The notes beneath the pieces were generated by a model. The model saw nothing but the letters and a program-made list of their open reading frames with translations. It did no database searches and was not told the DNA's origin. The position numbers and the translations under genes are program-made. 64,000 nt of DNA, taken from contig JBBDWJ010000244.1 in the NCBI GenBank assembly GCA_040902925.1, positions 20,795-84,794 of the forward strand. Direction: 5' to 3'. Source of the stretch: Bryobacterales bacterium. GTDB taxonomy: Bacteria > Acidobacteriota > Terriglobia > Bryobacterales > UBA6623. Of this stretch, positions 1,333-28,153 are shown piece after piece; within the stretch, counting starts at the first letter, position 1; the number at the start of each line of letters is the position of its first letter.

Positions 1333-3015
1333 ATGAAACGCTTTCTTCCGATCATCCTTTTGCTGGCCGTCCCGGGCCTCTCCCAGGAACAAGTCGACCG
1401 CGAGGCGATCCATCGCATCAAGAAGGAAGCCTTCGAGAAATCGCAGATCGACGACCACCTGTTTCAGATGGTCGAGGTCCACGGGCCGCGGCTCACTAAC
1501 TCGCCAGGCTTTCGCGCCGCCGCCGGCTGGCTGGTGACAACGTTGAAGGGCTGGGAGCTCGAAAACGTTCATCAGGAAAAATGGGGCCCCTTTGGACAAG
1601 GCTGGTCCTACAGCCGCTTCTCGGCGCATCTGGTTCAACCCGGATATGAAACGCTGATCGGCGTACCGATGGGCTGGACGCCTTCCACCGAAGGAGTGGT
1701 TTCCGGAGAGCCGGTGACGGCGCCGCTCAAGCGAGAGAACAATCTGGTTCGCGACGAGGCGGCGGTCGACGACTACATCCGGAAATACAAGGGAAAGCTG
1801 AAGGGGGAGATCGTGCTCGTTGCCCCGCTCCAGAAGATTCGCGTGCAAGCCGAGCCGGCTCTGAAGCGCTTTTCCGACGCCGAGCTGACCGAGCGCGGCA
1901 AGGCCGAGCAACCCATCCCGCCGATTGACGTGGAATATCTCGACCCCGAGCTGGAGATTCCCGAAGAGCCCGAAGACCGCCGCAATTTTTTGGCCCAGGC
2001 GCCGGCATGGTTTCGCGAATGGTCGAGCAATGAGCGCCGCCGTATTCAGGGCAAGCTCAATACATTCCTGGCCGACGAAGGAGTACGTCTGGTGATTCAC
2101 CCGGCCGGAAAGGGCGACGGCGGCACCGTATTTCCGCCCCGCTCGGGCGACCGCCGCGTTGAGCACCCCGTGCCGCCGCCTTCGATCGCGATCACGCCCG
2201 AACAATACAACCGGATCTTCCGTCTGGCCGGGAAGGGGATCGCGGCGCGGGTCGAGGTCGAGGTGACCACGGCGTTCCATCGCGACACCCTCGATTCCGT
2301 GAACGTGATTGCCGAATTGCCGGGCGGATCGAAGAAAGACGAGCTGGTGATGATCGGCGCGCACCTCGATTCGGTCGACGCCGGTTTAGGCGCCACCGAC
2401 AACGCCGCCGGTTGCGCGGTGATGATCGAGGCAATGCGTATTCTCAAAACGCTGGATTTGAAGCTTGACCGCACGGTACGCATGGCGCTGTGGGGCGGAG
2501 AAGAGCAGGGGCTGCTGGGATCCAAGGCCTACATCAAGGAGCGCTTCGGCGATCCGGAAACGATGAAGCTGACGCCGGCGCATGACAAGCTTGCCGCTTA
2601 TTTCAATGTGGATAATGGCACGGGCAAAATTCGCGGCGTCTACCTGCAAGGCAACGACATGGTACGGCCGATCTTTGATGCATGGCTGGCGCCCTTCAAA
2701 GACCTTGACGCCACCACGCTCTCAATCCGCGACACCGGCGGCACCGACCATCTTTCTTTCGACGCGGTCGGCCTGCCGGGCTTCCAGTTCATCCAGGACC
2801 CAGTGGAATACGAAACGCGCACGCACCACTCCAACATGGACGTTTATGATCGCTTGCAACTACCGGATCTGATGCAGGCCGCGGCGATCGTGGCGTCGTT
2901 CGTGTATCACGCGGCGAACCGGGCCGAGAAGCTGCCCCGTGAGCCGTTACCGGACCCGCAGCCTCTCACAAAGCCGGAACCCAAGCCCGCGCAGGCAGCG
3001 GGTGGCGGCCAATAG
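1333..3015 (+). CDS. Secreted M28-family aminopeptidase
   Basis: The N-terminus [18 protein letters not shown] looks like a signal peptide. M28-type zinc-site motifs are present: [40 protein letters not shown] and HHSNMDVYD. The track start at 1258 is probably too far upstream. Confidence 0.85.
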
Positions 3016-3082
3016 CGGCGGAGCGCGTCGGGAACGAATCTGCAGCGGTCGAGTCTATCGGGAAAAGCCTGGCATCGGTCAG

Positions 3083-4105
3083 TCACGTCCCCACGTAACG
3101 CGAGTACAGGCTGCGCGCCACGCCCAAGTCTTCCGTGCCTTTGATGATGGCCCGCCCATCGCTGAATACGGTCATCTCGTAGGGTGGGCAAACGAACCGC
3201 AAGGCGTATTCGTTAGCCCGGACTTTTCCGAGCGGCTCGAGTGCCGTTCTGAGCTCCACTAAATCCAGGGTGCGTTGCGAATCGTGAACCTGCACGGCGT
3301 TGCGGCCGCAAAGCATCGCCGAGCGCCGGCGCGCGGTCTCCAGATGCTTGAACTCGCGGCGGACGCATGCCGCGCAATCAGCGTCGCGGCTGCCAACCCC
3401 GACAGAGCGGATCGTGTTATTCCACACGTCGATCGTGAGCAGCCGCCGCTCGACCCTATCGCTCTGGCCCGAAAGGATTTTTATCGCGTCGGCCACCTGG
3501 AACGCTGCAATCGACGCTGTGATCGAATTCAGCACACCCGCGGTATCACAGGTGGGCTGGGCGCCTTCGGGAGGCTCGGGAAACACGCACGCCAGGCAGG
3601 CGCTCGTTGCCGGAAACACCGGCATGGTGACGCCATAGCTGCCCACCGCAGCCCCGTAGACCCAGGGGATACCCAGCTTCACTGCCACATCATTCACGAG
3701 ATAGCGCGTCTCGAAGTTGTCGGTCCCGTCGAGTATCACGCCGCCGGGAGCCAGCAGTTCTTCCGCGTTTCCCGCGGTCAGATCGGCCACGCGCGCCTCG
3801 ACGCGCACGCCGGAATTGATCCGTCCCAGTTTCTTTGCAGCCGCCGCCGCCTTCGGCAGCGCCTGGGCGGCGTCTTCTTCGTCAAACAGCCACTGCCGTT
3901 GCAGATTACTTGTTTCGACGTAATCGCGGTCGATGATTGTGAGTTTGCCCACGCCGGCCCGAGCCAGCGCATCCGCCTGGAAGCTGCCTAGAGCGCCGCA
4001 GCCGACGATGACGGCGTGAGCGGCCAAAAGCCTTTCCTGGCCCTGCTCACCCAGGCCCTGGAACAGGATTTGCCGCGAGTATCGCTCTCGATCGTGTTCC
4101 GTCAT
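3083..4105 (-). CDS. ThiF/MoeB-family E1-like adenylyltransferase, long form with a ~90-aa C-terminal domain
   Basis: The N-terminus reads RYSRQILFQGLGEQGQERLLAAHAVIVGCGALGS...DRDYVETSNLQRQ. Cys pairs CLAC and CAAC are present. The C-terminal CGRNAVQV...FSDGRAIIKGT resembles the long Bacillus-type ThiF. Confidence 0.8.
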   Translation of the reverse strand: MTEHDRERYSRQILFQGLGEQGQERLLAAHAVIVGCGALGSFQADALARAGVGKLTIIDRDYVETSNLQRQWLFDEEDAAQALPKAAAAAKKLGRINSGVRVEARVADLTAGNAEELLAPGGVILDGTDNFETRYLVNDVAVKLGIPWVYGAAVGSYGVTMPVFPATSACLACVFPEPPEGAQPTCDTAGVLNSITASIAAFQVADAIKILSGQSDRVERRLLTIDVWNNTIRSVGVGSRDADCAACVRREFKHLETARRRSAMLCGRNAVQVHDSQRTLDLVELRTALEPLGKVRANEYALRFVCPPYEMTVFSDGRAIIKGTEDLGVARSLYSRYVGT

Positions 4106-4312
4106 GAAAAGGCCCCATCAAAAAAGCTGTCACAAGCCGTCACGAAAGCAGGAGGTCCTCGCCCTGTCCCAACGCGGGCCGATCCTACACGCCGTCAGGC
4201 TAAGCTCCCTATTGATCCTATCAGTGAGTGTTCGGCACGCCTTGCCCCTCGATTAGTTGAGCGCATCGGCGGCTGACAACCCGTTTTGAGGCAAGGCCAC
4301 GTCTTATAATTC

Positions 4313-7300
4313 TTGATAGTGTCCCGTGGCATGCTTTGTCTATTGCTGGCGGCGCTCTGTCTGTGGACAGACCCGCTGCCTTGCGCTGACTTCGAGGGCC
4401 TGCCGCTGGGCGAGATCCGCTTCTCTCCCGATAACGATCTTCTTCTGGAACGGCACCGCAGCGAGCTGATTCTGATCGAGCCGGGCAAGCCTCTGGATAA
4501 CCGTCTGCTCGGCCAGACCATTCGCAACCTGTACGCGACAGGGCGTTTTGAAACGATCGACGCCGACGCTGAGCTCAAAGACGGAGAGGTGACGCTGACT
4601 TTCCTCGTCAGGCTGAGCCATTTCATCGGCCAAGTCAGCGTCGTTGGCGTCCCCAACCCACCGACGATCAACCAGCTTGCCAACGCCACCAAGCTGGATG
4701 CGGGTGAGTTGATGACCGAACGCCGCGTCGCCGCCGCCGAGCAAGGCGTGTTGCAGATTCTGCTCGACAACGGCTTTCCCGATGCCCTGGTAAAGACCGA
4801 TACGGCCGCTGACGACGAAACCCAACAAGCCGACATCACACTCGTCGTCGAGCCCGGCGTTCGCGCGGGCTTTGGACGCATCTTCGTGACGCCCAGCCCC
4901 GTTCTGACCGAGCCGCAAGTTCGCGAGATCACGGCATGGGGCCGCGGCGATGCGTACACCGAGCGCAGTGTGCTGCGCGGGCTGGAGCGGCTGCGCAAGT
5001 ACTACCAGAAGCAGGATCGCTGGCAGGTCAAGGTAAGCGCGATTCGCGGCGGCTTCAATGCCGACAGCGGCGAAATTGATGTGGTGCTCAACGTTGAGCC
5101 GGGTCCCCGCGTACTGGTGACCGTCGAGGGCGAGAGTTTTTCGCAGGGCCAGCTTCGGCGCTACATCCCGATCTTCGACGAAGGCGTCATCGACAACGAT
5201 CTGCTCGAGGAAGGCGCGGAAAACCTGCGCAACTATCTCCAGACCAAGGGTTACTTCAACGCTGCCGTGGAGTTCGACCCCGCCTCCGCTAGCGGCGACG
5301 AGATCCGCGTCGTCTACGATGTGAACCGCGGAAAGCGCTATGCGCTGGTACAGATCGAGATCGCCGGCAACCAGTGGTTCGACCTCGAAACCATTCGCGA
5401 GCGCATGTTGATTCGCACCAAAAGCTTCCAGATGCGCCGCGGCCGCTTTAGCCAAAGCCTTCTCGAGAGCGATATCTCCGCCATTGAAGATCTTTACCGC
5501 TCCAACGGCTTCCGCGACATCGCCATTACGTCGCGTGTGGAAGAAGACTATCAGGGAGCACAAGGCGACCTGGCGGTTTCTATCACCATCCGCGAGGGAG
5601 AGCCGACGCTGGTCGACGATCTCATCATCGAGGGAATGCAGAAGATCAAACCGGACCGCTTCCTGCCGATGCTCGCGTCGGCGCCAGGGCAGCCTTTCAG
5701 CGAATCCAGTATCGCCACCGACCGCTCGCTGATTTTGGCGGAATATTTCAACGACGGCTACCAGGATGCGAGCTTCGAGTGGGAAAGGCGGCCGGCAGGC
5801 GAGGACGGCCGCGTCATCGTCGAGTATCACATCCGCGAAGGCGAGTCGCTCTACACGCGCGGCGCCATCGTCGCCGGACTGGTTCATACCCAGCCGCATC
5901 TGGTTCAGCAACAGATTCGCCTAACCCCTGGAGAGCCGCTTTCGCAGAGCGATATGTTCGAAACCCAACGCCGGCTTTACGATCTGGGCATTTTTTCGCG
6001 GGTTGATGTAGCGCTTCAGAATCCAGAAGGCGAGGAGCCGGCCAAGAACGTGCTGCTGCAATTGGAGGAAGCCCGCCGTTGGGTGGTGGGCTTCGGCGGC
6101 GGCGCGGAATTCGCGCGCCTCGGCGGCAACACCGGTGATCTCTCCGACGCGGTTGGCGATGCCACGTTTAGTCCGCGCGTCACAATCGAGACGACCCGGC
6201 TCAACTTTCGCGGCATCGGCCACACCCTCAACGTGCGAACACGGCTTTCCAATTTGCAGCAACGCGCGCTATTCACTTATGAGGCGCCGCGCTGGACCGG
6301 CTCGGAAAAGTGGAAGATGACGCTCAGCGCCCTCTACGACTCGTCGCGCAACGTGCGAACCTTTCGTGGGACCCGCCTGGAGGGCGCGCTCCAGCTCCAG
6401 CATCGCTTGAGCCGGCCTTCGACCGCTCTCTATCGCTACACTTTCCGCCGCACGACGATCGATGAAGCGACGCTGCAGATTTCACCGTCGCTGATCCCGC
6501 TCGCATCGCGTCCCGTTCGCGTGGCATTGTTCTCGGGCACCTATATTCAGGACCGCCGCGACGATCCAACCGATGCAAGCCGCGGCATCTACAACACCGC
6601 GGACTTGGGTTTCGCGAACGGCTACTGGGGCTCGCAGCCCGACTTCGTCCGCATGCTCGGGCAAAATGCCACCTATCACCGGCTCAGCCCTCGCGTCGTC
6701 GTGGCGCGCTCGCTGCAAATTGGGCTGATGTTTGCCGCTGGAAGCCGCCCCGACAGCGACCTACCCGCTAGCGGACTGACAATTCGGTCCATCTCGAACC
6801 CCGATGTGCGAATTCCCATCACGGAGCGCTTCTATTCCGGCGGCGCCAACTCGCACCGCGGCTTTCCGGTCAATCAAGCCGGGCCGCGTGACCCGCTTAC
6901 CGGATTTCCCATCGGCGGCGGTGCGACCGTCGTGAACAGCGTGGAGCTGCGCTTCCCGTTGATCGGCGAGAACATTCGCGGGGTTCTTTTTCACGACGCC
7001 GGCAACGTCTTTTCGCGGCCCGGCGAGATCAACTTCAGCACTTCGCAGCGTTCCACGACGAGTTTGCTACCCGAGAACCTGCCGCCGCGCGCTCGCAGCC
7101 GCGCCCAGGGCACTGACCCGATCACGGTCTACGACTTCGACTACATGGTTCATGCGGTGGGTCTCGGAGTGCGCTATCGCACCCCCATCGGACCCATCCG
7201 GCTCGACCTCGCTTACAGTTTGAATCCGCCTCGCTTCGCGGGATTCACCGGGACGCGGGATGAATTGCTCGTCAACCGTGGAACCGTTAGCGAGCAGCGC

Positions 7301-8161: not shown

Positions 8162-11100
8162 ATGACGGAGCCGATGGCAGTCATGAAGAAGCTTCTTTCC
8201 AAACTCGGCCGGATTCGCTGGAGCCGCTGGCTCGGAATTCCCCTGCTGATCGCAATCCTACTGGTGATCGCGTTCCAGGCGACCGTACGCACCGATTGGT
8301 TTCAGCACAAGGTGCGCGACCGCGTGATCCTGGAGCTCGAACGAGCCACCGGCGGCCGCGTCGAGCTCGGCGCCTTCCTGTTCGACCCCGGAACCATGAC
8401 GGTCACCATCAACCGGCTGGTGATTCACGGCGCCGAACAGCCTCCCGAGCCTCCACTACTTAGCATTCCCACGCTGCGTATCGAGTTGACCCTCGTATCC
8501 CTTCTGTCGATGCAGGTTTCGGTTCGCGCCCTGCAGGTGCAATCGCCCGAAATTCATCTGACCGTTGCAGACGATGGGACGACGAACTTGCCTGGCGGGC
8601 AGCGCGGTGCGGCCTCGGGAGACAGCGTGGATACTCTGCTCGATCTCGCCGTTGACCGTCTCGAGGTGCAGCAAGGCAGCCTGTATTGGAACAATGTTCC
8701 CCACCGCCTTTCGGTGCGTGGCGCCGGGCTGCAGCTCGGTACACGCTACGAGCGTGCCGAAGACCGCTACGCACTCTCCTTCCGGGTCGCTGAGCTCGGT
8801 TTCGAATATGCCGAGAGCGAAACCGTGCTTTCTGAATCTGAGGGGGAGCTTTTCGTCTACCGCGATCGCGTCGAAGTGCCTCATCTCGTCGTCGGCACGA
8901 GCGGCGCGCGGATCGAAGCTCACGCCCAAATGCGCGGCTGGCAGCAGCCAGAAATAGACGCTGAGTACAAGGGCCGGTTCTCGATAGAGCCTTGGAAGGT
9001 GCGTTTCGGTTTGCAGTTCCTGGGCGAGGGATTGGCGGAGCTCGCCGGAAAGCTGGCCTGGCGCGGCGCCGACGAAAGCCTCGCCTATTCCGGGAGCGTC
9101 GCTTTAGAGAGCGCCATCAACAGCACCGGAAGCGAAGCTCCCAAGGTTCTGGCAAGCGCCGAATACTCCGGCGACGCCGCCCGCGCCCGGCTGCGCAATC
9201 TCGATGTAGCCGCTTTCGGCGGCCATTTTCACGGCGAGGCCGAGGCGGAAGTCGCGCCAACCGCGCCCCCCGGTTGGCGGCTCTCGGGCGATTTTGATGG
9301 TTACTCTATCCGCTCGGTTGCCGAAGCCGCCAGAGCCACGGGTATCGCCAACCTGCCGGCCAACTTGCCGTGGCGCAGTCTGCTCAGCGGGTGGCTTCGC
9401 GCCGAGGGCGCCGGGCTCGACGATGCTCAGCTTTCGGCTTCGCTGATCCTCGCTCCGCCGCAGGGCTTGCCCCCCGATCAGCGGCTGCTCGAAGGGGTCG
9501 TTGATGTGGTCTATCGCAGCAGCGACCAGCTCCTTCAGTTTTCGCGTATCGATCTTTCCACCGGCGCGTCGCGCGTCGCCGCGCACGGCAGTATCACCGC
9601 CGACGGCCGCTCGATTCTCGATCTCGAGGCCACACTGGACCAGCTCACGGACCTGGCCACAGCAGCACGCATGGCGGGAATCGACATCAGCGAGCTGCCG
9701 CTGCAACTGCAAGGCCAGGCTTCCCTCGAAGGTCATTTCGCCGGCCAACTCTTTCTCGACCGCCCCCCGCAAGGGCGCTTCACAGGTAAGCTCGAGGCGA
9801 ACGGCTTGCGGACGGCGGGCTACGACTGGCGCCGTTTCAGCGGGGATCTCGAGCTGGAGCCCGGCAGGCTTCGCCTCGAACAAGGCATCCTCGAGGACCC
9901 CGATGGCACGGCCCAACTTGCCCTGACGGTTCCGCTGGAAGACTACAGGCTCTCGCCCGCGGGGCCGTTGGCCGGCAACGTCAAGTTCAGCGGCTTTTCT
10001 GTTGAGCGCTTTCTGGCAACGTTCGGCCGTAGCGAGAAAATCACGGGAATCGCGGGCGGGCAGGTTCGCCTGTCTGGCGCCGTTGAGAACCCGGAATTCA
10101 CCGCCGAAGCCACCGTGCGCGAAGGCGCCGTCTGGGACGAACTTTTCCAGATCGCCACCGTGAAAGCCCAATACGCCGCTGGAAAGCTCGACGTATCGAG
10201 TTTCGAGATCCTCAAGGCCCCCCGTCCCGGCAGTGAGGGAGCGCAGCCGCGAGTGCGCGGCCAGGGGCAGTTCACCCCCGCCGACCGGCGTTTTCGATTG
10301 GACCTCAGCGGCGGCGATTGGAACCTCGCGCAGTTCGATCGATTCGAAGGCGCCGCCCGCCCGCCCAGCGGCGACGTCCAACTCGATTTGCACGCCTCTG
10401 GCCGCCTATCCGAAGGCCAGGAACTGTTCGACGAGCTCGACGTCACAGGAAACTGGAACCTCCAGAATGTCGCGCTCGGTGAGCAATCGCTCGGCTCCCT
10501 CGCCGGCAACATCGCCACGCAGGGCAAGCAGGTCTATCTCGACTGGAAGGCCGCTTTGCTGGGAGGCCAACTGAGCGGCAAAGCCGAGTTACAGCCCGCC
10601 GGCGACCAGTCGTTCCACGGGCAGATGGAGTTCCAGAAATTCCAGGCCCTCGGCGTAGCGCAACTGGCGCGCCTGCCGGTCGAACAGATGCAGGGTGAGG
10701 TTGACGGCAGCTTCACCTTCTCGGGAGACCTTGCGGAGCCCAACAATCTCAAGGCAGAGGGAACGATCACGCGCCTGGAGGTCGGCCTTACAGAAATCGC
10801 GGGCGCCAATAAGGGCTATTCGCTGTGGAATCCATTTCCTATGCGCTTTTCGCTCGCGGAACGCCGTCTGCGTCTCGATGGCATGCGCCTGCTCGGCCAG
10901 GGCACCGACATCGGCATCGACGGAACGATTCCCTTCGCGCTCATGGACCCCGCGGAAAACAAGCTTGATGTCTCGGTGGAGGGCGATTTCAACCTCTCGG
11001 TGCTGGAGAGCTTTCGTTCCGGACTCGAGGCAAGCGGCGTATCGAGCGTGGAGGTCAACATCCGCGGCACGATGGAGCAGCCGCAACTGCGCGGTCGGCT

Positions 11101-20344: not shown

Positions 20345-20908
20345 TCACCGATCCACCAACTCCGCCATCGCAAAAACCCGGTCAAACGGGCAGTTGTGCT
20401 TCTGCTCGATCGCCTCGCGCCCTCCTTGTTCCCGATCGACAAGGCAAAGCGCGCCAAGGACTTCCATGCCCGCCTCCCGCGACACCTCGATCGCTTGAAT
20501 GGTCGATCCGCCCGTCGTACAGACGTCGTCGACAATGACGACTTTCCTGCCGGCCGGGTCGTCGATGCCTTCAATGAATTTCTGACGCCCGTGCTTTTTC
20601 GCTTCTTTGCGGATCAGAAAAGCGTTGATGGGCGAGGCGGAGTCGAGCGACTCGCGAGCAACGGCGGTGACGACCGGGTCGGCCCCCATCGTAAGGCCGC
20701 CCACCACGTCTGGCATCCAACCCCGTTCCCGCATTTTGGCCAGCATCAGCCGCCCGATCAACGGCATCGCTTCCGCCCGCAGCGTGGTCAGCCGGCAATC
20801 CACATACAGATTGCTGCGCTGCCCCGAGGCGAGCACAAAGTCTCCAAAACGCACCGAGTGGGTCTTGAGGATCTGTTTCAGGCTTTCGCGGTCCTGTGGA
20901 TTGCTCAA
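20345..20908 (-). CDS. pyrE: Orotate phosphoribosyltransferase
   Basis: The N-terminal region reads FGDFVLASGQRSNLYVDCR. The PRPP-binding loop is VVIVDDVCTTGGSTIQAIE. Confidence 0.93.
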   Translation of the reverse strand: MSNPQDRESLKQILKTHSVRFGDFVLASGQRSNLYVDCRLTTLRAEAMPLIGRLMLAKMRERGWMPDVVGGLTMGADPVVTAVARESLDSASPINAFLIRKEAKKHGRQKFIEGIDDPAGRKVVIVDDVCTTGGSTIQAIEVSREAGMEVLGALCLVDREQGGREAIEQKHNCPFDRVFAMAELVDR

Positions 20909-22817: not shown

Positions 22818-23015
22818 GCAATACACCTCCCAACTGTGGACGGATTCCTGGGGTGCCGAAGAGAAATAGACTGGAAGTCGTCTTCCCCGAGCGTCTTCGC
22901 ATTTTACACCAGATAATATCGGTAAGCCAGCGACGCTTGGGAAGGCTGCCGAGCGGAAACCAGGTCTCGGCCTCGCTAAGTGGCCCCGAGAGTCTCTGGA
23001 AGAGGTGACGGATTG

Positions 23016-24296
23016 ATGACCGAAGTTCTCGCCGTGATGTTGGCCGGCGGTGTCGGGGAGCGCTTGTACCCCCTCACCAGGGAGGTCGCCAAGCCGGCGG
23101 TCCCGTTCGGCGGGATCTACCGCATCATCGATATCACACTTTCCAATTGCATCAACGCGGGCCTGCGCAAGATCTACATCCTCACGCAGTACAAGGCGAT
23201 CACCCTCAACCGGCACATTCGCCGCACCTGGAACATCGTCTCGCCCGAGTTGGACGAGTTCATCGAGGTCCTGCCGCCCACCAAGCGCATCAGCGAAGAC
23301 TGGTATCTTGGCACGGCCAACGCCGTCTACCAGAACTCGCAGAGCGTCGCCGTCGAGGGTCTTCCCTTCACGCTTGTGCTGTCGGCGGATCACGTCTATA
23401 AGATGAACTATCAAAACATGCTCGATTGGCACGTCGAGCATGGCGCCGACCTCACCGTAGCCACGACGCAGGTCTCGCCGTCCGAGGCCGATCAATTCGG
23501 CATCGTCGACATCGACGCCGGCCTGCGCATTCAGGGTTTTGAGGAAAAGCCCAAGCACGGCCAGCCGATGCGCTCGCGGTTCAACCCCCAGATGTGCAGC
23601 GCGTCGATGGGGATCTATCTTTTCAACACCGCCACCCTGATCGAGGAGCTCGAGGCCGACAACGCGCTCGAAGGCTCCTCCCACGATTTCGGCAAAGACG
23701 TGCTGCCCCAAATGATCGCCGGCGGCCGCAAAGTCCTCGCCTACGACTTTGTCGACGAGAACCGCACCGACATCCGCTACTGGCGCGACATCGGGACGCT
23801 GGACGCCTTCTATGAAGCCAATATGGATCTAGTGGCCGTCTCACCCGTCTTCAACCTCTACGACGACAAATGGCCGATCCGGAGCGCGCAATGGACCTAT
23901 CCGCCGGCGAAATTCGTCTTCGCCGAAGAAGGCCGCCGGATGGGCGTCGGGGTGAACTCGATGGTCTGCGCCGGCTGCATCATCTCGGGCGGCCGGGTCG
24001 TCAACAGCATCCTGTCGCCGGGGGTTCGCGTCCACAGCTACTCCGAGGTCGAGTTCTCGATCCTGTTCCCGCACGTCAATATCGGCCGCCATAGCCGCAT
24101 CCGCCGCGCCATCATCGACACCGACCTCACCATCGAGGAACACACCGAGATCGGCTTCGACCCCGAGGCGGACCGGCGCGCCGGCCACTTCGTCACCGAG
24201 TCCGGCATCGTCATCGTGCACGCCGATTCCCCCAATGTTCAGAAAAAACCGAACGGCGGCGAGCGCCAGGACCGCTTTCTGCAAGCATCCCGTTAA
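23016..24296 (+). CDS. glgC: Glucose-1-phosphate adenylyltransferase
   Basis: The N-terminus reads MTEVLAVMLAGGVGERLYPLTREVAKPAVPFGGIYRIIDITLSNCINAG. YWRDIGT and a left-handed beta-helix C-terminus follow. The ATG at 23016 was confirmed. Confidence 0.93.
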   Translation: MTEVLAVMLAGGVGERLYPLTREVAKPAVPFGGIYRIIDITLSNCINAGLRKIYILTQYKAITLNRHIRRTWNIVSPELDEFIEVLPPTKRISEDWYLGTANAVYQNSQSVAVEGLPFTLVLSADHVYKMNYQNMLDWHVEHGADLTVATTQVSPSEADQFGIVDIDAGLRIQGFEEKPKHGQPMRSRFNPQMCSASMGIYLFNTATLIEELEADNALEGSSHDFGKDVLPQMIAGGRKVLAYDFVDENRTDIRYWRDIGTLDAFYEANMDLVAVSPVFNLYDDKWPIRSAQWTYPPAKFVFAEEGRRMGVGVNSMVCAGCIISGGRVVNSILSPGVRVHSYSEVEFSILFPHVNIGRHSRIRRAIIDTDLTIEEHTEIGFDPEADRRAGHFVTESGIVIVHADSPNVQKKPNGGERQDRFLQASR

Positions 24297-24458
24297 CCAC
24301 CCCAGTCGAGGGGAAAGCCAGGACCACCAGGTTCGGGAATCCCCACTTGTCTTTAAAATTCAATATAATATCGTCGGAAGCTGATTCATTTCCCCACCGT
24401 TGGCGGCGGATTTTTTCGCAGGGACGAACTCCGGGGAGCGTCAGGGTGTTGCGTTTCT

Positions 24459-25388
24459 ATGGCAGTCACGGCACGCCAGCACATCAAACGCATGCGGGGA
24501 GGCGCCAACGCCCACCTGATGCTGGCCGCCGACAATGCCTATTACGTCATCAAGTTTCGCAACAACCCGCAGCACCCGCGTGTCCTGGTCAACGAGCTGA
24601 TCTGTTACGTTCTGCTCTCCTATTTGCAGCTCCCCGTCCCGGATTGGGAGATCGTCGAGGTGCCCGCCAGGCTGCTGGAAATATCGCCTGAGCTGGTGAT
24701 GGAAGCCGGCCGCTCGGTACGCCGCTGTGAGCCGGGGCTTCATTTTGGGTCCCGCTATCCGGTGGATCCGTTGCGGCAGGCGGTTTACGACTACCTGCCC
24801 CTTTCCCTGCTGCGAGTCGTGCTGAATGCCGATAGTTTCTGCGGGATGCTGGCCTTCGACAAGTGGGTTAGCAACGCCAACGGCCGCCAGGCGGTTTTTT
24901 TTCGGGACCGCGCGCGCCGCTGGCTGCCGGCCGTGGAAGCAGTTTCGCTGCATCCCTCGCTGGCGGCGAGTTCGTCATCGATGGGACCCGGAATTCCGCC
25001 GCGGCCCGGAATTTCGCCGCGCTCGCTGGTCTACGTGGCGGCGATGATCGACCACGGCTTCGCTTTTGAGGCGCAGAACTGGTCGTTCTCGGACTCCCCC
25101 GAGCGCGGTCTTTATAGCCGCCGCGAGGTCTACGAGCGGGTCCGCGGTTTCGCCGCCTTCGAGCCTTGGCTCGACCGCATTTGCCATTGCTCGAGCAGCG
25201 TGCTCGACGATGTCTATAAGAAAGTGCCCCCCCAATGGCACGGCGGCGAATGGGACAGCCTCGAGGCGCTGCTCGAGCAGCTTTACCGCCGCCGCAGCCG
25301 GGTTCCCGACCTCGTGCGCGACGCCAAGAACGCCGGCCGCGATCCGTTCCCCAATTGGTCGACGGCCGCAACGGCGGTGGCGCGGTGA
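24459..25388 (+). CDS. HipA-like (PI3/4-kinase-fold) putative Ser/Thr kinase, partner of DUF3037
   Basis: The N-terminus IKRMRGGANAHLMLAADNAYYVIKFRNNPQHPRVLVNELICYVLLSYLQLPVP matches my memory of the HipA-like kinase family that neighbours DUF3037. Later motifs are FDKWVSNANGRQ and MIDHGFAF. A Pro/Ser-rich insertion of about 40 aa lies between them. Confidence 0.6.
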   Translation: MAVTARQHIKRMRGGANAHLMLAADNAYYVIKFRNNPQHPRVLVNELICYVLLSYLQLPVPDWEIVEVPARLLEISPELVMEAGRSVRRCEPGLHFGSRYPVDPLRQAVYDYLPLSLLRVVLNADSFCGMLAFDKWVSNANGRQAVFFRDRARRWLPAVEAVSLHPSLAASSSSMGPGIPPRPGISPRSLVYVAAMIDHGFAFEAQNWSFSDSPERGLYSRREVYERVRGFAAFEPWLDRICHCSSSVLDDVYKKVPPQWHGGEWDSLEALLEQLYRRRSRVPDLVRDAKNAGRDPFPNWSTAATAVAR

Positions 25389-25458
25389 TGGGGGGATGCA
25401 AAGGCAGGTGGGAGACAGGGCTTGTGAGGGCCGGTGCTTGGGAAACCGCGGGCGCGTG

Positions 25459-25546
25459 GCAAAGAAAAAAAGGCACGGAAGGCGCAAGGCAAAAGGCAAA
25501 GTGCAAAAGGAAAAAGGCAAAATTGGAGAGAGAGAGAGAGAGAGAA
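25459..25546. repeat. Polypurine tract with reiterated AAGGCAAA-like units and a (GA)10 microsatellite
   Basis: The tract reads ggcaaagaaaaaaaggcacggaaggcgcaaggcaaaaggcaaagtgcaaaaggaaaaaggcaaaattg. It ends with gagagagagagagagagaga at 25526-25545. It fills much of the 183-bp spacer between the kinase and DUF3037 ORFs. Confidence 0.9.
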
Positions 25547-25571
25547 CAGGCCGGGGATACGGAGGTGAGCG

Positions 25572-26375
25572 ATGGCGGAAACCGTGGGATCGGCGATCGA
25601 TTACCGGTTCGAGCTTCTGCGCTACGTACCGAACGTAGTCGCGGGCGAGGCGTTCAATATCGGCGTGTTGCTGTATGACGGCGCGGGGCGGCTGCTCGAT
25701 GCGCGCTTTGCCCAGGAATTCCGGCGTCTGAAGTGTCACCCGCTGGTCGACTTCGATTATCTGCACGCGCTGCGCAACGAGTTCGAGGACAGGCGTCTGA
25801 CCGGAGAAGGCTTTTCCGACTACGTTACCGGGTTGAAGAAAAACCTGTCGAACAGTTTGCAGATTTCCACCGCCACGGCCTTGCGCGGCGAAAGCGCGGT
25901 TGCGGAGATCGAGCGGCTGTTTTCGAGCTACGTGGCGACTCCGGTCCCCGCGGACAGGGAGACCGGGGACCCCGAACCGCAGCCCGGCAGCCGGCGCGCT
26001 CTGAAGCGCCGCATGGACGACGCCTTCCGCAGCCATCAACTGTTCGCCAATGGCGACCGCCTGCGCCCCGACGCGCGCGTTAGCTACGGCAGCGCGCGGC
26101 TGCAATTCAGCTTTGACTACGCCTACCAGCCCGACGACGCCACACGCTACGTGCACGGCCTGGCTCTCAACGAGGAGATCCACCGCGCCGAGAAGCTGTG
26201 TTTTGTGTATGACCGCCTGCGCGGACGCCAGCCCGGGATCGGCCTGACGGTGGTGCTGGACGACGGCGTCCAGGACGATGTGAAGCAGTTGCTCGAGTCC
26301 AGCGAGGCCACGACGTGGGAAATCGGGCGTGTCGATGAGCTGGCGTTCGCAATCCGCACAGAGATGGGCCTCTAA
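25572..26375 (+). CDS. DUF3037 domain-containing protein
   Basis: The N-terminus MAETVGSAIDYRFELLRYVPNVVAGEAFNIGVLLYDGAG has the Y..l.RyvP....GE..NiGvvl signature I associate with DUF3037. The Shine-Dalgarno GGAGG ends 6 nt before the ATG. Confidence 0.65.
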   Translation: MAETVGSAIDYRFELLRYVPNVVAGEAFNIGVLLYDGAGRLLDARFAQEFRRLKCHPLVDFDYLHALRNEFEDRRLTGEGFSDYVTGLKKNLSNSLQISTATALRGESAVAEIERLFSSYVATPVPADRETGDPEPQPGSRRALKRRMDDAFRSHQLFANGDRLRPDARVSYGSARLQFSFDYAYQPDDATRYVHGLALNEEIHRAEKLCFVYDRLRGRQPGIGLTVVLDDGVQDDVKQLLESSEATTWEIGRVDELAFAIRTEMGL

Positions 26376-26485
26376 GGCGCTGCTGCGGCCAATCGCCCGG
26401 GTGCGTGCTCCAGGCGTAGTTTCACCCGCCAAAACGCTGCCGGCCGGAGCCTCACGGCATTGGAAATCCACGCTAAGATGGGGCC

Positions 26486-28153
26486 ATGAAGCGCCTTTTC
26501 AAGTTGCTGTTAGGCGTCGTCATTGGCTTCGCGGCCCTGATGCTTCTGTCGGGCCTGGCGATCCGGGCGATGCTGTCGGGCTCGGCCAGCAAAGCGGTTT
26601 TGGCCTCCCTGGAATCGCGCCTCCAAGCCCCCGTTGCGATCGAGCGCGGCGACTTCGACTTGGCGCGTTGGTTCCGCTTTACGCCTGCTGTCACCCTGTA
26701 CGGCTTTTCGGTCGGCAACCCGCCGGGCTTTACGTCCGGCAACATGCTCGAAGCCGAGGAGGTCGCGGCCGAAGTTTCGCTGCTGTCGCTGTTCTCCGAT
26801 CGCATCGTGATTCATAGCGTCGTCCTTCGCCGGCCTCGATTCATCCTGGAGACTAACGCGGCGGGGCAAAGCAATCTTAGCGCCCTGTTCCCGTCATCCT
26901 CCGAGCCGGCGGCGGAATCGGAGCCCGGCGCCTCGCCGACCACGCTCGCCATCCACAGCCTCTATCTCGAGGACGGCACGGTGCGCTACATCGAATCCGG
27001 CGGCGCCGAGCCGCTTACCGTCGAGGGAATCGCGCTGCAGTTGACCGACTTCGCACCAGACTCGAGCTGCCGCTTCGAGTTGCAGGGGCGGCTTTTCGGC
27101 GCCGAGCATTGCCGGCTTCAATTTGCGGGGAACGCCGGGCCGTTCGGAGAAGCCTCGATTCCGGCCACCGGAGACCTGGACCTGGAACTCGCTCCCATCG
27201 AGATCCCCGCCGCCATTCGGCAAAAGTACTTCGGAACGGTATTGGCCGACCCTGGCGACGCCAGCCGCGTACGCCTTTCCGCGAACGTCGGTGGCGATCT
27301 GTTTGCCGAGCTGCGCGGCAAGGGGGAGCTGAATTTCGCGGAATTTCAGGTCGGCCCCGATGCGGAGAACCGCCTCGGGCTCGAGGGCCAGGCGCCCCTG
27401 GAGTTAAACGTCAATCACCTGTTGGGCGAGCCGGCTGTTCACCTGAACGCCTCTGGCGCGTCGTTGCGTATCGGTAGCGGCGAGTGGCAGGGCAAGAGCG
27501 AATTCCACTTCGCCAAATCGCAGTTCAAGGGCTACCTGAACGGCGCGATTCGCGACGTCGACATCGACCAGTTGCTGAGCGCCTTCTCCGACGCGAAAGG
27601 GACCATCTTCGGAACCGCCCAGATTCCTGACCTGCAACTCAGCTTCGCCGGAGGCGATCCCGACACGCTTCTCAATTCGCTTTCCGGGCGCGGCACGATC
27701 GCGATGGAAGACGGCCGCATCGCCGCGCTCGACATCTTCAACTCCGTGATCAGCCAGGCGGAAAAGATGCTCAGCGGCGAGATCGCGGCGCCGGGCGAGA
27801 CCAAGTTTGTGCGCCTGTTCAGCCAGTGGCAAATCGGCAGCCGCCGGCTCCAGCTCAGCGAGATTTTGCTCGAGAGCGGGGCCTCGGCGCTTTCCGGCGC
27901 CGGCACCATGAGCTTCGATCACGAGCTCAATTTCGATCTGCAAACAACCATCAGCGGGCCGGTCGCGGCCAAGCTTGGCGGCAAGCCGAATGCCCAGGGA
28001 ATCCCCGTGGCGCCGGTCCCGGTGAAGGTCAGCGGAACGCTGGAGGCTCCCAAGGTGCGGCCCGATCTGGGACGCGTGGCCAAGCAGCAGGTGAAAGAAC
28101 GAGTCACCGACCTGCTGGATTCGCTGTTCAAAAAACGCGACCCGCAGCCGTAA
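26486..28153 (+). CDS. asmA: AsmA-family outer-membrane biogenesis protein
   Basis: An N-terminal anchor MKRLFKLLLGVVIGFAALMLLSGLAI is present. An AsmA-type N-domain follows (...IHSVVLRRPRFILETNAAGQSNLSAL), and the C-terminus is AsmA_2-like. Confidence 0.75.
   Translation: MKRLFKLLLGVVIGFAALMLLSGLAIRAMLSGSASKAVLASLESRLQAPVAIERGDFDLARWFRFTPAVTLYGFSVGNPPGFTSGNMLEAEEVAAEVSLLSLFSDRIVIHSVVLRRPRFILETNAAGQSNLSALFPSSSEPAAESEPGASPTTLAIHSLYLEDGTVRYIESGGAEPLTVEGIALQLTDFAPDSSCRFELQGRLFGAEHCRLQFAGNAGPFGEASIPATGDLDLELAPIEIPAAIRQKYFGTVLADPGDASRVRLSANVGGDLFAELRGKGELNFAEFQVGPDAENRLGLEGQAPLELNVNHLLGEPAVHLNASGASLRIGSGEWQGKSEFHFAKSQFKGYLNGAIRDVDIDQLLSAFSDAKGTIFGTAQIPDLQLSFAGGDPDTLLNSLSGRGTIAMEDGRIAALDIFNSVISQAEKMLSGEIAAPGETKFVRLFSQWQIGSRRLQLSEILLESGASALSGAGTMSFDHELNFDLQTTISGPVAAKLGGKPNAQGIPVAPVPVKVSGTLEAPKVRPDLGRVAKQQVKERVTDLLDSLFKKRDPQP

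Follow-up and report, generated by a model that had tools for sequence, protein, structure and literature searches.

An acidobacterial HipA_2–DUF3037 gene pair, divergent and chromosomally resident, with asparagine at the position of the kinase catalytic aspartate

What is a kinase gene with relatives in phage defence, together with its DUF3037 partner, doing among housekeeping genes of an acidobacterial chromosome, and what can such a kinase do when the residue at the site of its catalytic aspartate reads as asparagine? The question is raised by a contig of a Bryobacterales bacterium (GenBank assembly GCA_040902925.1, contig JBBDWJ010000244.1), of which we analysed positions 20,795 to 84,794. 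We refer to this whole stretch, 64,000 nucleotides with 62.2% G+C overall, as the window, and coordinates are positions in it unless a related locus is named. The original prediction, made from the sequence alone, had placed two co-oriented open reading frames (ORFs) between glgC and an asmA-thyA-folA block. Both ORFs are present, they contain the peptides that had been quoted from them (RMRGGANAHLML..., FDKWVSNANGRQ, MIDHGFAF and YRFELLRYVPNVVAGEAFNIGVLLYD), and the flanking genes are as described. The ORF map gives the kinase first and DUF3037 second, on the same strand:

22980..24296: glgC, upstream of the kinase gene
24459..25388, forward strand: kinase-fold gene of the HipA_2 family, 309 amino acids
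25572..26375, forward strand: DUF3037-family partner gene, 267 amino acids, two domains
26486..28153: AsmA-family gene, downstream of the DUF3037 gene and followed by thyA and folA

We find that the locus belongs, broadly defined, to the HipA_2/DUF3037 family, as a highly divergent, chromosomally resident and acidobacterial member, and that this type of pair is already known as an anti-phage module, so that no new kind of system is present here. The locus lacks three features of HipAD/DS-6, namely the catalytic Asp, the C-terminal domain of the partner, and the mobile or defence-related context. Tentatively, we favour reading the pair as a toxin–antitoxin-like kinase switch that is attenuated and responds to stress or phage, and not as a fully active abortive-infection kinase.

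Two experimental systems provide the reference for this reading. DS-6, studied in Escherichia coli, comprises the HipA-family kinase DS-6A and DS-6B, a protein with DUF3037 and DUF1829, and protects against phages; an AlphaFold 3 prediction of the DS-6A:DS-6B complex reached an interface predicted template modelling score (ipTM) of 0.76-0.79, and the system was renamed HipAD after its independent discovery in E. coli prophages (DeWeirdt et al., Science 2026, PMC13092281). In the Retron-Sda1 operon a HipA-like kinase is needed for defence against Bas51, deletion of the DUF3037 gene is toxic and the retron parts are dispensable; comparing genomes, the same study found DUF3037 "strongly associated" with HipA-like genes (PLoS Biol 2025, PMC12548924). 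The original prediction had stated that no experimentally assigned function was known for such a pair and had ranked it as the best candidate in the window for an undescribed system. Both statements have been overtaken: the pair matches, weakly and in part, the PADLOC phage-defence candidate PDC-M66, and relatives are validated as the anti-phage system DS-6/HipAD (PMC13092281) and as the defence component of the Retron-Sda1 operon (PMC12548924). The suggestion of a toxin–antitoxin or abortive-infection module, on the other hand, matches the experiments on these relatives (PMC12548924, PMC13092281).

The proposed HipA-like identity of the first protein was borne out by Pfam HipA_2 (PF20613), at E 9.7e-12 and 45.1 bits against a cutoff of 27. 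The match is partial, covering profile positions 7-121 of 240, which is the N-lobe only, and ending at residue 140; the kinase thus lacks the whole-domain match of archetypal members, such as DS-6A with positions 1-239 of 240 at E 1e-76. In PADLOC-DB the two proteins match the two PDC-M66 models and nothing else, weakly and in part: the kinase matches PDC-M66A over residues 3-107 (E 3.4e-6) and the partner matches PDC-M66B over residues 10-54 only (E 1e-8), whereas DS-6A and DS-6B score 6e-15 and 3.8e-16, the latter over its full length. The kinase is also matched by phrog_3162 (E 1.4e-18). Its Pfam, PADLOC, PHROG and tblastn alignments reach no further than residue 139-141, and its BLASTP identity with DS-6A is 28%, in the N-lobe only. 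HipA_C gave E 0.01, below cutoff, and a sequence-level search gave no PDB match. Comparison of the kinase profile with the validated DS-6A by hhalign, by contrast, extended over the whole kinase (206 columns, probability 98.1%, E 1e-13). The AlphaFold2 (AF2) model has a protein-kinase-like fold, with a mean predicted local distance difference test score (pLDDT) of 91.7 and a predicted template modelling score (pTM) of 0.90, and its best Foldseek matches in the PDB are Fam20C/Fam20A, PI4KII-alpha, CtkA and HipA (E 6e-5 to 1e-2, template modelling (TM) scores of ~0.45-0.5).

The features of the kinase on which the argument turns are the following:

24879..24881, forward strand: codon AAC, Asn141, at the site of the HipA-type kinase catalytic Asp
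25050..25058, forward strand: D198-H199-G200 (IDHG), a DFG-like metal-binding motif that aligns with DS-6A LIDHN
24936..25022, forward strand: Pro/Ser-rich disordered insertion, about residues 160-188, between the catalytic loop and IDHG
24987-25021: 18-bp tandem duplication inside this insertion (Tandem Repeats Finder: period 18, 1.9 copies)

Among homologues, the Gly-rich loop, K32, E46, D134, N139, R143, Q144, D198 and G200 vary little or not at all. The ATP-binding Lys K32, which aligns with the VLK of DS-6A, and the metal-binding Asp D198 are invariant, and D198 and G200 are so in 87-105 homologues. The Pro/Ser-rich insertion that had been noticed before IDHG is indeed present; it is a disordered, lineage-specific expansion, with pLDDT of 55-72, found only in the window copy and its closest relatives P0002 and P0005, and of variable length.

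The most informative point of the original prediction was that the catalytic loop, NANGRQ, is atypical, and this was correct. Where the N-x-D loop would hold its catalytic Asp, the kinase has Asn: BLASTP, hhalign and MAFFT all place Asn141 on Asp139 of DS-6A (AFDKWVSNAN141 against VFDKWILNAD139), and the D139A mutation of DS-6A abolishes defence (PMC13092281). A sub-threshold profile alignment to Shewanella HipA likewise places Asn141 on the Asp of GNADahGKN, and pairs R143 with the Lys and Q144 with the Asn of the loop. This register agrees with the residues that we take to form the loop of E. coli HipA, D309, K313 and N314; D309 would be the equivalent of DS-6A D139, and the D309Q mutant is presumably inactive. 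PDB entry 3tpt, with the title 'HipA(D309Q) bound to ADP', is among the Foldseek matches of the kinase model.

On these alignments, the catalytic base is replaced by Asn and the 'H-x-K-N' part of the HipA loop is shortened to G-R-Q. Since the Lys that binds ATP, the Glu of helix C and the Asp that binds metal are nevertheless intact, we expect a nucleotide-binding protein whose phosphotransfer is strongly reduced, though probably not to zero. Pseudokinases with Asn at the catalytic-base position exist, for example HER3/ErbB3, and Fam20A is a further pseudokinase; the analogy lies in a replaced catalytic Asp with retained nucleotide-binding residues, and implies no homology to the window kinase beyond a protein-kinase-like fold. 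Across 87 acidobacterial homologues position 141 is occupied by D or N only, even though a single mutation would give several other residues, which argues for selection on the site and for a constrained role in the active site.

The partner protein has two parts:

Residues 14-121 of the partner: DUF3037 domain (Pfam PF11236)
25992..26363, forward strand: C-terminal alpha/beta domain, residues 141-264, with a weak PD-(D/E)xK-nuclease-like fold

Its proposed assignment to DUF3037 is supported by PF11236 over profile positions 2-118 of 118 (E 1.4e-11, 45.1 bits against a cutoff of 22.6), a model that all 45 partner homologues match. NCBI lists an identical protein from a Bryobacterales metagenome-assembled genome (Acidobacteriota). 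With DS-6B, hhalign aligns the N-terminal DUF3037 domain only (probability 95-97.6%); even a 91-sequence profile gave no alignment of the C-terminus to that of DS-6B, which HHpred annotates as DUF1829 (p 0.78), and in the 45 homologues the C-terminal half (residues 141-264) has no match to DUF1829 or another Pfam family. The AF2 model (pLDDT 82) gives this domain the topology a-b-b-b-a-b-a-b-a, and its Foldseek matches in the PDB, weak as they are (E 1e-3 to 1e-1, ~130-140 columns), are nearly all of the PD-(D/E)xK nuclease fold, among them Can2/Card1-like, Cdn1, AF1548, OkrAI, MspJI, Mus81 and R2 RLE. The domain contains no canonical (D/E)xK catalytic motif; its nearly invariant residues, R141, D182 and Y185, form no such site. 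Given the weak PD-(D/E)xK-like fold, a distant equivalence to the C-terminal domain of DS-6B is possible. An exhaustive profile search found 2,342 representative partner homologues (clusters at 50% identity, E<=1e-3), and most of the 150 matches listed align over nearly the full length, so that a two-domain architecture of ~270 amino acids is common.

Set against DS-6/HipAD, the pair has the same order of a HipA_2 kinase followed by DUF3037 on one strand, an order also found in Pantoea plasmid and Klebsiella phage pairs, and shares the FDKW..NA[D/N] and IDH motifs. It differs not only in having Asn where DS-6A has D139 but also in a loop after this site with 7 residues fewer (GRQ in place of RTLTDKGGN), a kinase lengthened by an additional insertion and at its C-terminus, a partner C-terminus that does not align, and a housekeeping chromosomal context in Acidobacteriota; its genes lie 183 bp apart, whereas those of DS-6 overlap by 4 bp. 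The Retron-Sda1 pair likewise has HipA-like and DUF3037 domains as neighbours but, by its description, adjoins a retron reverse transcriptase and non-coding RNA and has a partner C-terminus that resembles a retron type III DNA-binding protein. The type II system HipBA, represented by HipA of E. coli and Shewanella, has the kinase fold in common with the window (Foldseek TM of HipA ~0.42-0.46) and an N-lobe motif and catalytic loop that align weakly. Unlike HipBA, the window locus has neither a HipB helix-turn-helix antitoxin nor the HipA N-terminal domain, the Gly-rich loop standing right at the start of the kinase; the antitoxin-like gene follows the kinase gene instead of preceding it, the upstream gene being glgC; and the D-x-H-x-K-N catalytic loop is replaced by N-G-R-Q.

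We collected relatives by a pattern scan with one genome per species. At least 584 species genomes carry a relative of the kinase, and the best 80 are all Acidobacteriota. A census of paired and solo kinases covered 86 loci, at which DUF3037 was sought within 8 kb. It lies directly downstream on the same strand at 40 of the 86, which supports the earlier statement that the two families are neighbours, in agreement with the published neighbourhood analysis (PMC12548924); at 46 (L013-L081) none was found within the 8 kb. A neighbour-joining tree of the kinases, rooted on DS-6A, has three clades that broadly match the organism names of the records. Clade I (Acidoferrum/Terriglobia) holds 24 paired species loci and the solo kinase of L038, all with N141. 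Clade II (Bryobacterales, including the window) is paired except for L086, and in it D and N alternate, with about 4 switches. Clade III (Bryobacteraceae/Solibacteraceae), a large sister clade, consists of solo kinases, all with D141, and has conserved SLT/LysM-like and EF-G-like upstream genes. Locus L085, which is paired, has these upstream genes too, an indication that the kinase was inherited vertically and the partner lost.

Site 141 and pairing are associated: paired kinases have N in 31 cases and D in 8, and solo kinases D in 45 and N in 1. The association is striking, but Fitch parsimony counts just 5 changes between D and N and 3 between paired and solo, so that few independent events underlie it. 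Some N-type kinases, in addition, have a gene for a dual-specificity phosphatase of the DSPc family (PF00782, 152 amino acids) directly upstream on the same strand, a hint of a continuing role for phosphorylation in such relatives:

L094, 2597-4807: DSPc-kinase-DUF3037 order, likewise in L095 and L096
L038, 7489-8813: DSPc-kinase without DUF3037

Both genes of the window evolve like their neighbours. Between the window and L087, the ratio of nonsynonymous to synonymous divergence (dN/dS) is 0.14 for the kinase and 0.15 for DUF3037, compared with 0.03-0.18 for flanking genes, and their dS (0.27) and G+C content at third codon positions (GC3) match the flanks. We conclude that purifying selection maintains both genes and that their divergence has kept pace with that of the neighbourhood. 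In L002 (ena:ERZ25039549 contig_33139, ~9000-9909), an orthologous kinase of ~82% identity carries a +1 frameshift after about residue 70 and is called as a 209-amino-acid gene, which could be pseudogenisation or an assembly indel.

The original prediction called the cassette "inserted", and this is true only in a loose sense. The downstream junction reflects a rearrangement between two separately conserved blocks, since L092 and L093 (68-71% AsmA identity) have asmA-thyA-folA but not the pair, and there a MIP channel gene or pyruvate carboxylase stands in front of the block; downstream genes are variable also in the P0013 contigs, which have PCMT/TamB. At the cassette there is no integrase or flanking repeat, there is no tRNA in the 64-kb window, and GC3 and dS are those of the flanks. 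A comparison of synteny had been proposed for the glgC-asmA junction, and on its glgC side the result gives little support to an insertion: the order rpsU-glgC-kinase-DUF3037 is kept in all examined relatives with a kinase identity of ~80% or more. At 53-67% identity the pair is found in other housekeeping contexts, and paired loci with annotated neighbours show four different contexts, so that its chromosomal position differs between lineages. The pair thus stays together while its surroundings change, as expected of the self-contained module that had been proposed. Carriage by a prophage, mobile element or defence island, which is typical of HipAD though not strictly defining, is absent here. 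It is seen in distant DS-6-type relatives: Klebsiella phage Kp4864-1 (OK490416, a record without annotation; L090, ~2950-4520) encodes a kinase-then-DUF3037 pair of close homologues of E. coli DS-6A/DS-6B, and a Pantoea plasmid pair adjoins a phage tail gene. A solo HipA family kinase on the Peribacillus sp. R9-11 plasmid pB (L088, 2977-3753) overlaps the end of a GT4 glycosyltransferase gene and adjoins dTDP-rhamnose (rfb) genes, an unexpected cell-envelope context.

How the pair might be expressed can be judged from the regions before and between the genes:

24355..24369, forward strand: AT-rich box AAATTCAATATAAT, conserved, including TATAAT at 24364-24369
25389..25571, forward strand: purine-rich intergenic spacer, 183 bp, 78% purine
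25486-25522: 7-bp repeat AAGGCAA, 5.3 copies, in the spacer
25526-25545: perfect (GA)10, in the spacer
25561-25568: Shine-Dalgarno sequence GGAGGTGA, preceding the DUF3037 gene

The AT-rich upstream stretch was described accurately: positions 24341-24400 have exactly 40% G+C, the TATAAT is where it had been placed, and 24332-24391 (60 bp, 35% G+C) is the second most AT-rich 60-bp stretch of the 64 kb. Although a simple sigma-70 scan called no full promoter upstream of the kinase gene, AAATTCnnTATAAT is retained in the window, L087 and L002 while the remaining intergenic sequence diverges, which supports a real -10 element, and the AAATTCAATATAAT box is likely the -10 promoter element for both genes. 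Between the TATAAT and the kinase start codon, a short G+C-rich hairpin is followed by a T-run (CCGTTGGCGGCGG ATTTTTT, 24397-24419). It is largely conserved in L087 and may act as the terminator of glgC or as an attenuator in the leader, but matches of this type are about as common as in shuffled sequence (4 observed, 2.9 expected).

The polypurine spacer of 183 bp with its (GA)10 is likewise real in composition and position, and contains the richest 150-bp purine stretch of the window (80%, against 64% for the runner-up elsewhere). What it lacks is conservation past the nearest relative, and an Rfam family match. GGCAAA-type repeats are common to the window and L087, the (GA)10 occurs in the window only, and the tract is absent from L002, L083, L003 and L009; we treat it as a simple-sequence expansion, not a conserved element. 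No terminator-like site was predicted between the two genes. Three repeats of the slipped-strand type fall within 560 bp: the 18-bp coding duplication (PGIPPR/PGISPR), AAGGCAA x5.3 and (GA)10. The DUF3037 start codon follows the (GA)10 at a distance of 26 bp, and the length of this repeat could vary between cells; L001, the sole other sample with this sequence, is identical.

As an attenuated toxin–antitoxin-like switch, the pair would work as follows. A single promoter, at the conserved TATAAT box, would drive both genes; the kinase-fold protein would be a growth-arresting effector; and the DUF3037 protein, translated from its own, apparently strong ribosome-binding site, would bind the kinase and restrain it. 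The restraint is modelled on DS-6, where it was inferred, and on the Retron-Sda1 pair, where it was shown genetically. For the window pair, our analysis shows the homology, the order of the genes, the substitution, the purifying selection and the context; that the proteins form a complex, that the kinase is neutralised, that it keeps some activity and what triggers it are inferences.

Several observations weigh against this reading. The Asp essential for DS-6A defence is absent here, and kinase-dependent toxicity may be absent with it. Similarity to the validated systems is remote, given the low N-lobe identity (28%), the partial PADLOC matches and partner C-termini without detectable similarity. 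The contexts seen are all housekeeping (glgC, asmA, thyA, folA, rpsU, EF-G-like, PNT and the like), none being a defence island or prophage, and the clade occurs on 1 of 2.9 million viral contigs in IMG/VR compared with the at least 584 species genomes. An obligate toxin–antitoxin pair would not lead one to expect the large solo clade with Asp and no DUF3037 within 8 kb. Finally, L084 (ena:ERZ21829562 ctg255039l, 8989-10959) has an intact D-type kinase, identical to P0019, beside a DUF3037 gene cut to 198 amino acids by an insertion sequence (IS) element with rve/HTH_Tnp_1 genes, a natural disruption of the partner that appears to be tolerated.

The main rival reading is a domesticated housekeeping module, of HipAD-like ancestry but now a pseudokinase or slow-kinase signalling pair with no phage defence or toxin–antitoxin addiction, in which DUF3037 would be a regulatory or nucleic-acid-binding partner and not an antitoxin. 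We regard this as possible, if somewhat doubtful. In its favour are the breadth of the kinase within Acidobacteriota, clades that broadly follow organism names, dS and GC3 equal to those of flanking core genes, and housekeeping contexts throughout; the upstream genes common to solo kinases and L085 suggest descent with partner loss, the catalytic Asp is replaced in 31/39 paired kinases, and the phosphatase neighbour of some relatives points to a reversible phospho-switch. It has to contend with the toxicity and defence shown experimentally for relatives of the same architecture, with a position that varies by lineage (four contexts, and asmA-thyA-folA without the pair in L092 and L093), and with the lack of any housekeeping pathway consistently linked to the pair; old chromosomal residence, moreover, is also possible for toxin–antitoxin systems. 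A bolder proposal, which we consider unlikely, is that the N141 clade is a natural pseudokinase or atypical-chemistry derivative of HipAD, fixed in the core genome with a regulatory function outside defence, where loss of the Asp would co-evolve with retention of DUF3037 and the PD-(D/E)xK-like domain of the partner would serve as output or sensor in place of the kinase.

It is improbable that the pair is a fully active abortive-infection system that works exactly like DS-6, Asn141 being compatible with activity, for example with D134 as the base. The other kinase motifs are all invariant, D134-x4-N139 is itself a D-x4-N pattern, the pair architecture is identical to that of DS-6, and the entire clade I (24 paired loci and solo L038) has N141 and is yet conserved. 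But D134 lies inside a predicted helix (residues 126-137 of the AF2 model) and aligns with the structural 'FD' Asp D132 of DS-6A, not with the catalytic D139; DS-6A has this FD Asp too, and D139A still abolished its defence. The equivalent HipA D309Q is, as we assume, also inactive. That the pair is an eroding remnant, its toxin inactivated first by the D to N change and the whole heading to loss, is very improbable, for although such two-step decay, with toxin inactivation before antitoxin loss, has been described for chromosomal toxin–antitoxin systems (PMC13617665), and the frameshifted L002 kinase and IS-disrupted L084 partner resemble it, the frameshift may be an assembly error, dN/dS of both genes is like that of flanking core genes, ORFs are intact and motifs invariant across deep divergence, and N141 is fixed across an entire old clade.

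HipA_2–DUF3037 pairs have been validated as anti-phage only recently, and this locus shows that the family has a large, old and chromosomally stable branch in Acidobacteriota. In this branch the essential catalytic Asp toggles between D and N under purifying selection, and the state of the site tracks the presence of DUF3037. The D/N variation is thus a natural 'mutant series' with which to ask whether phosphotransfer is the toxic activity and what the role of DUF3037 is, and the same series bears on how defence and toxin–antitoxin modules are domesticated in slow-growing soil bacteria.

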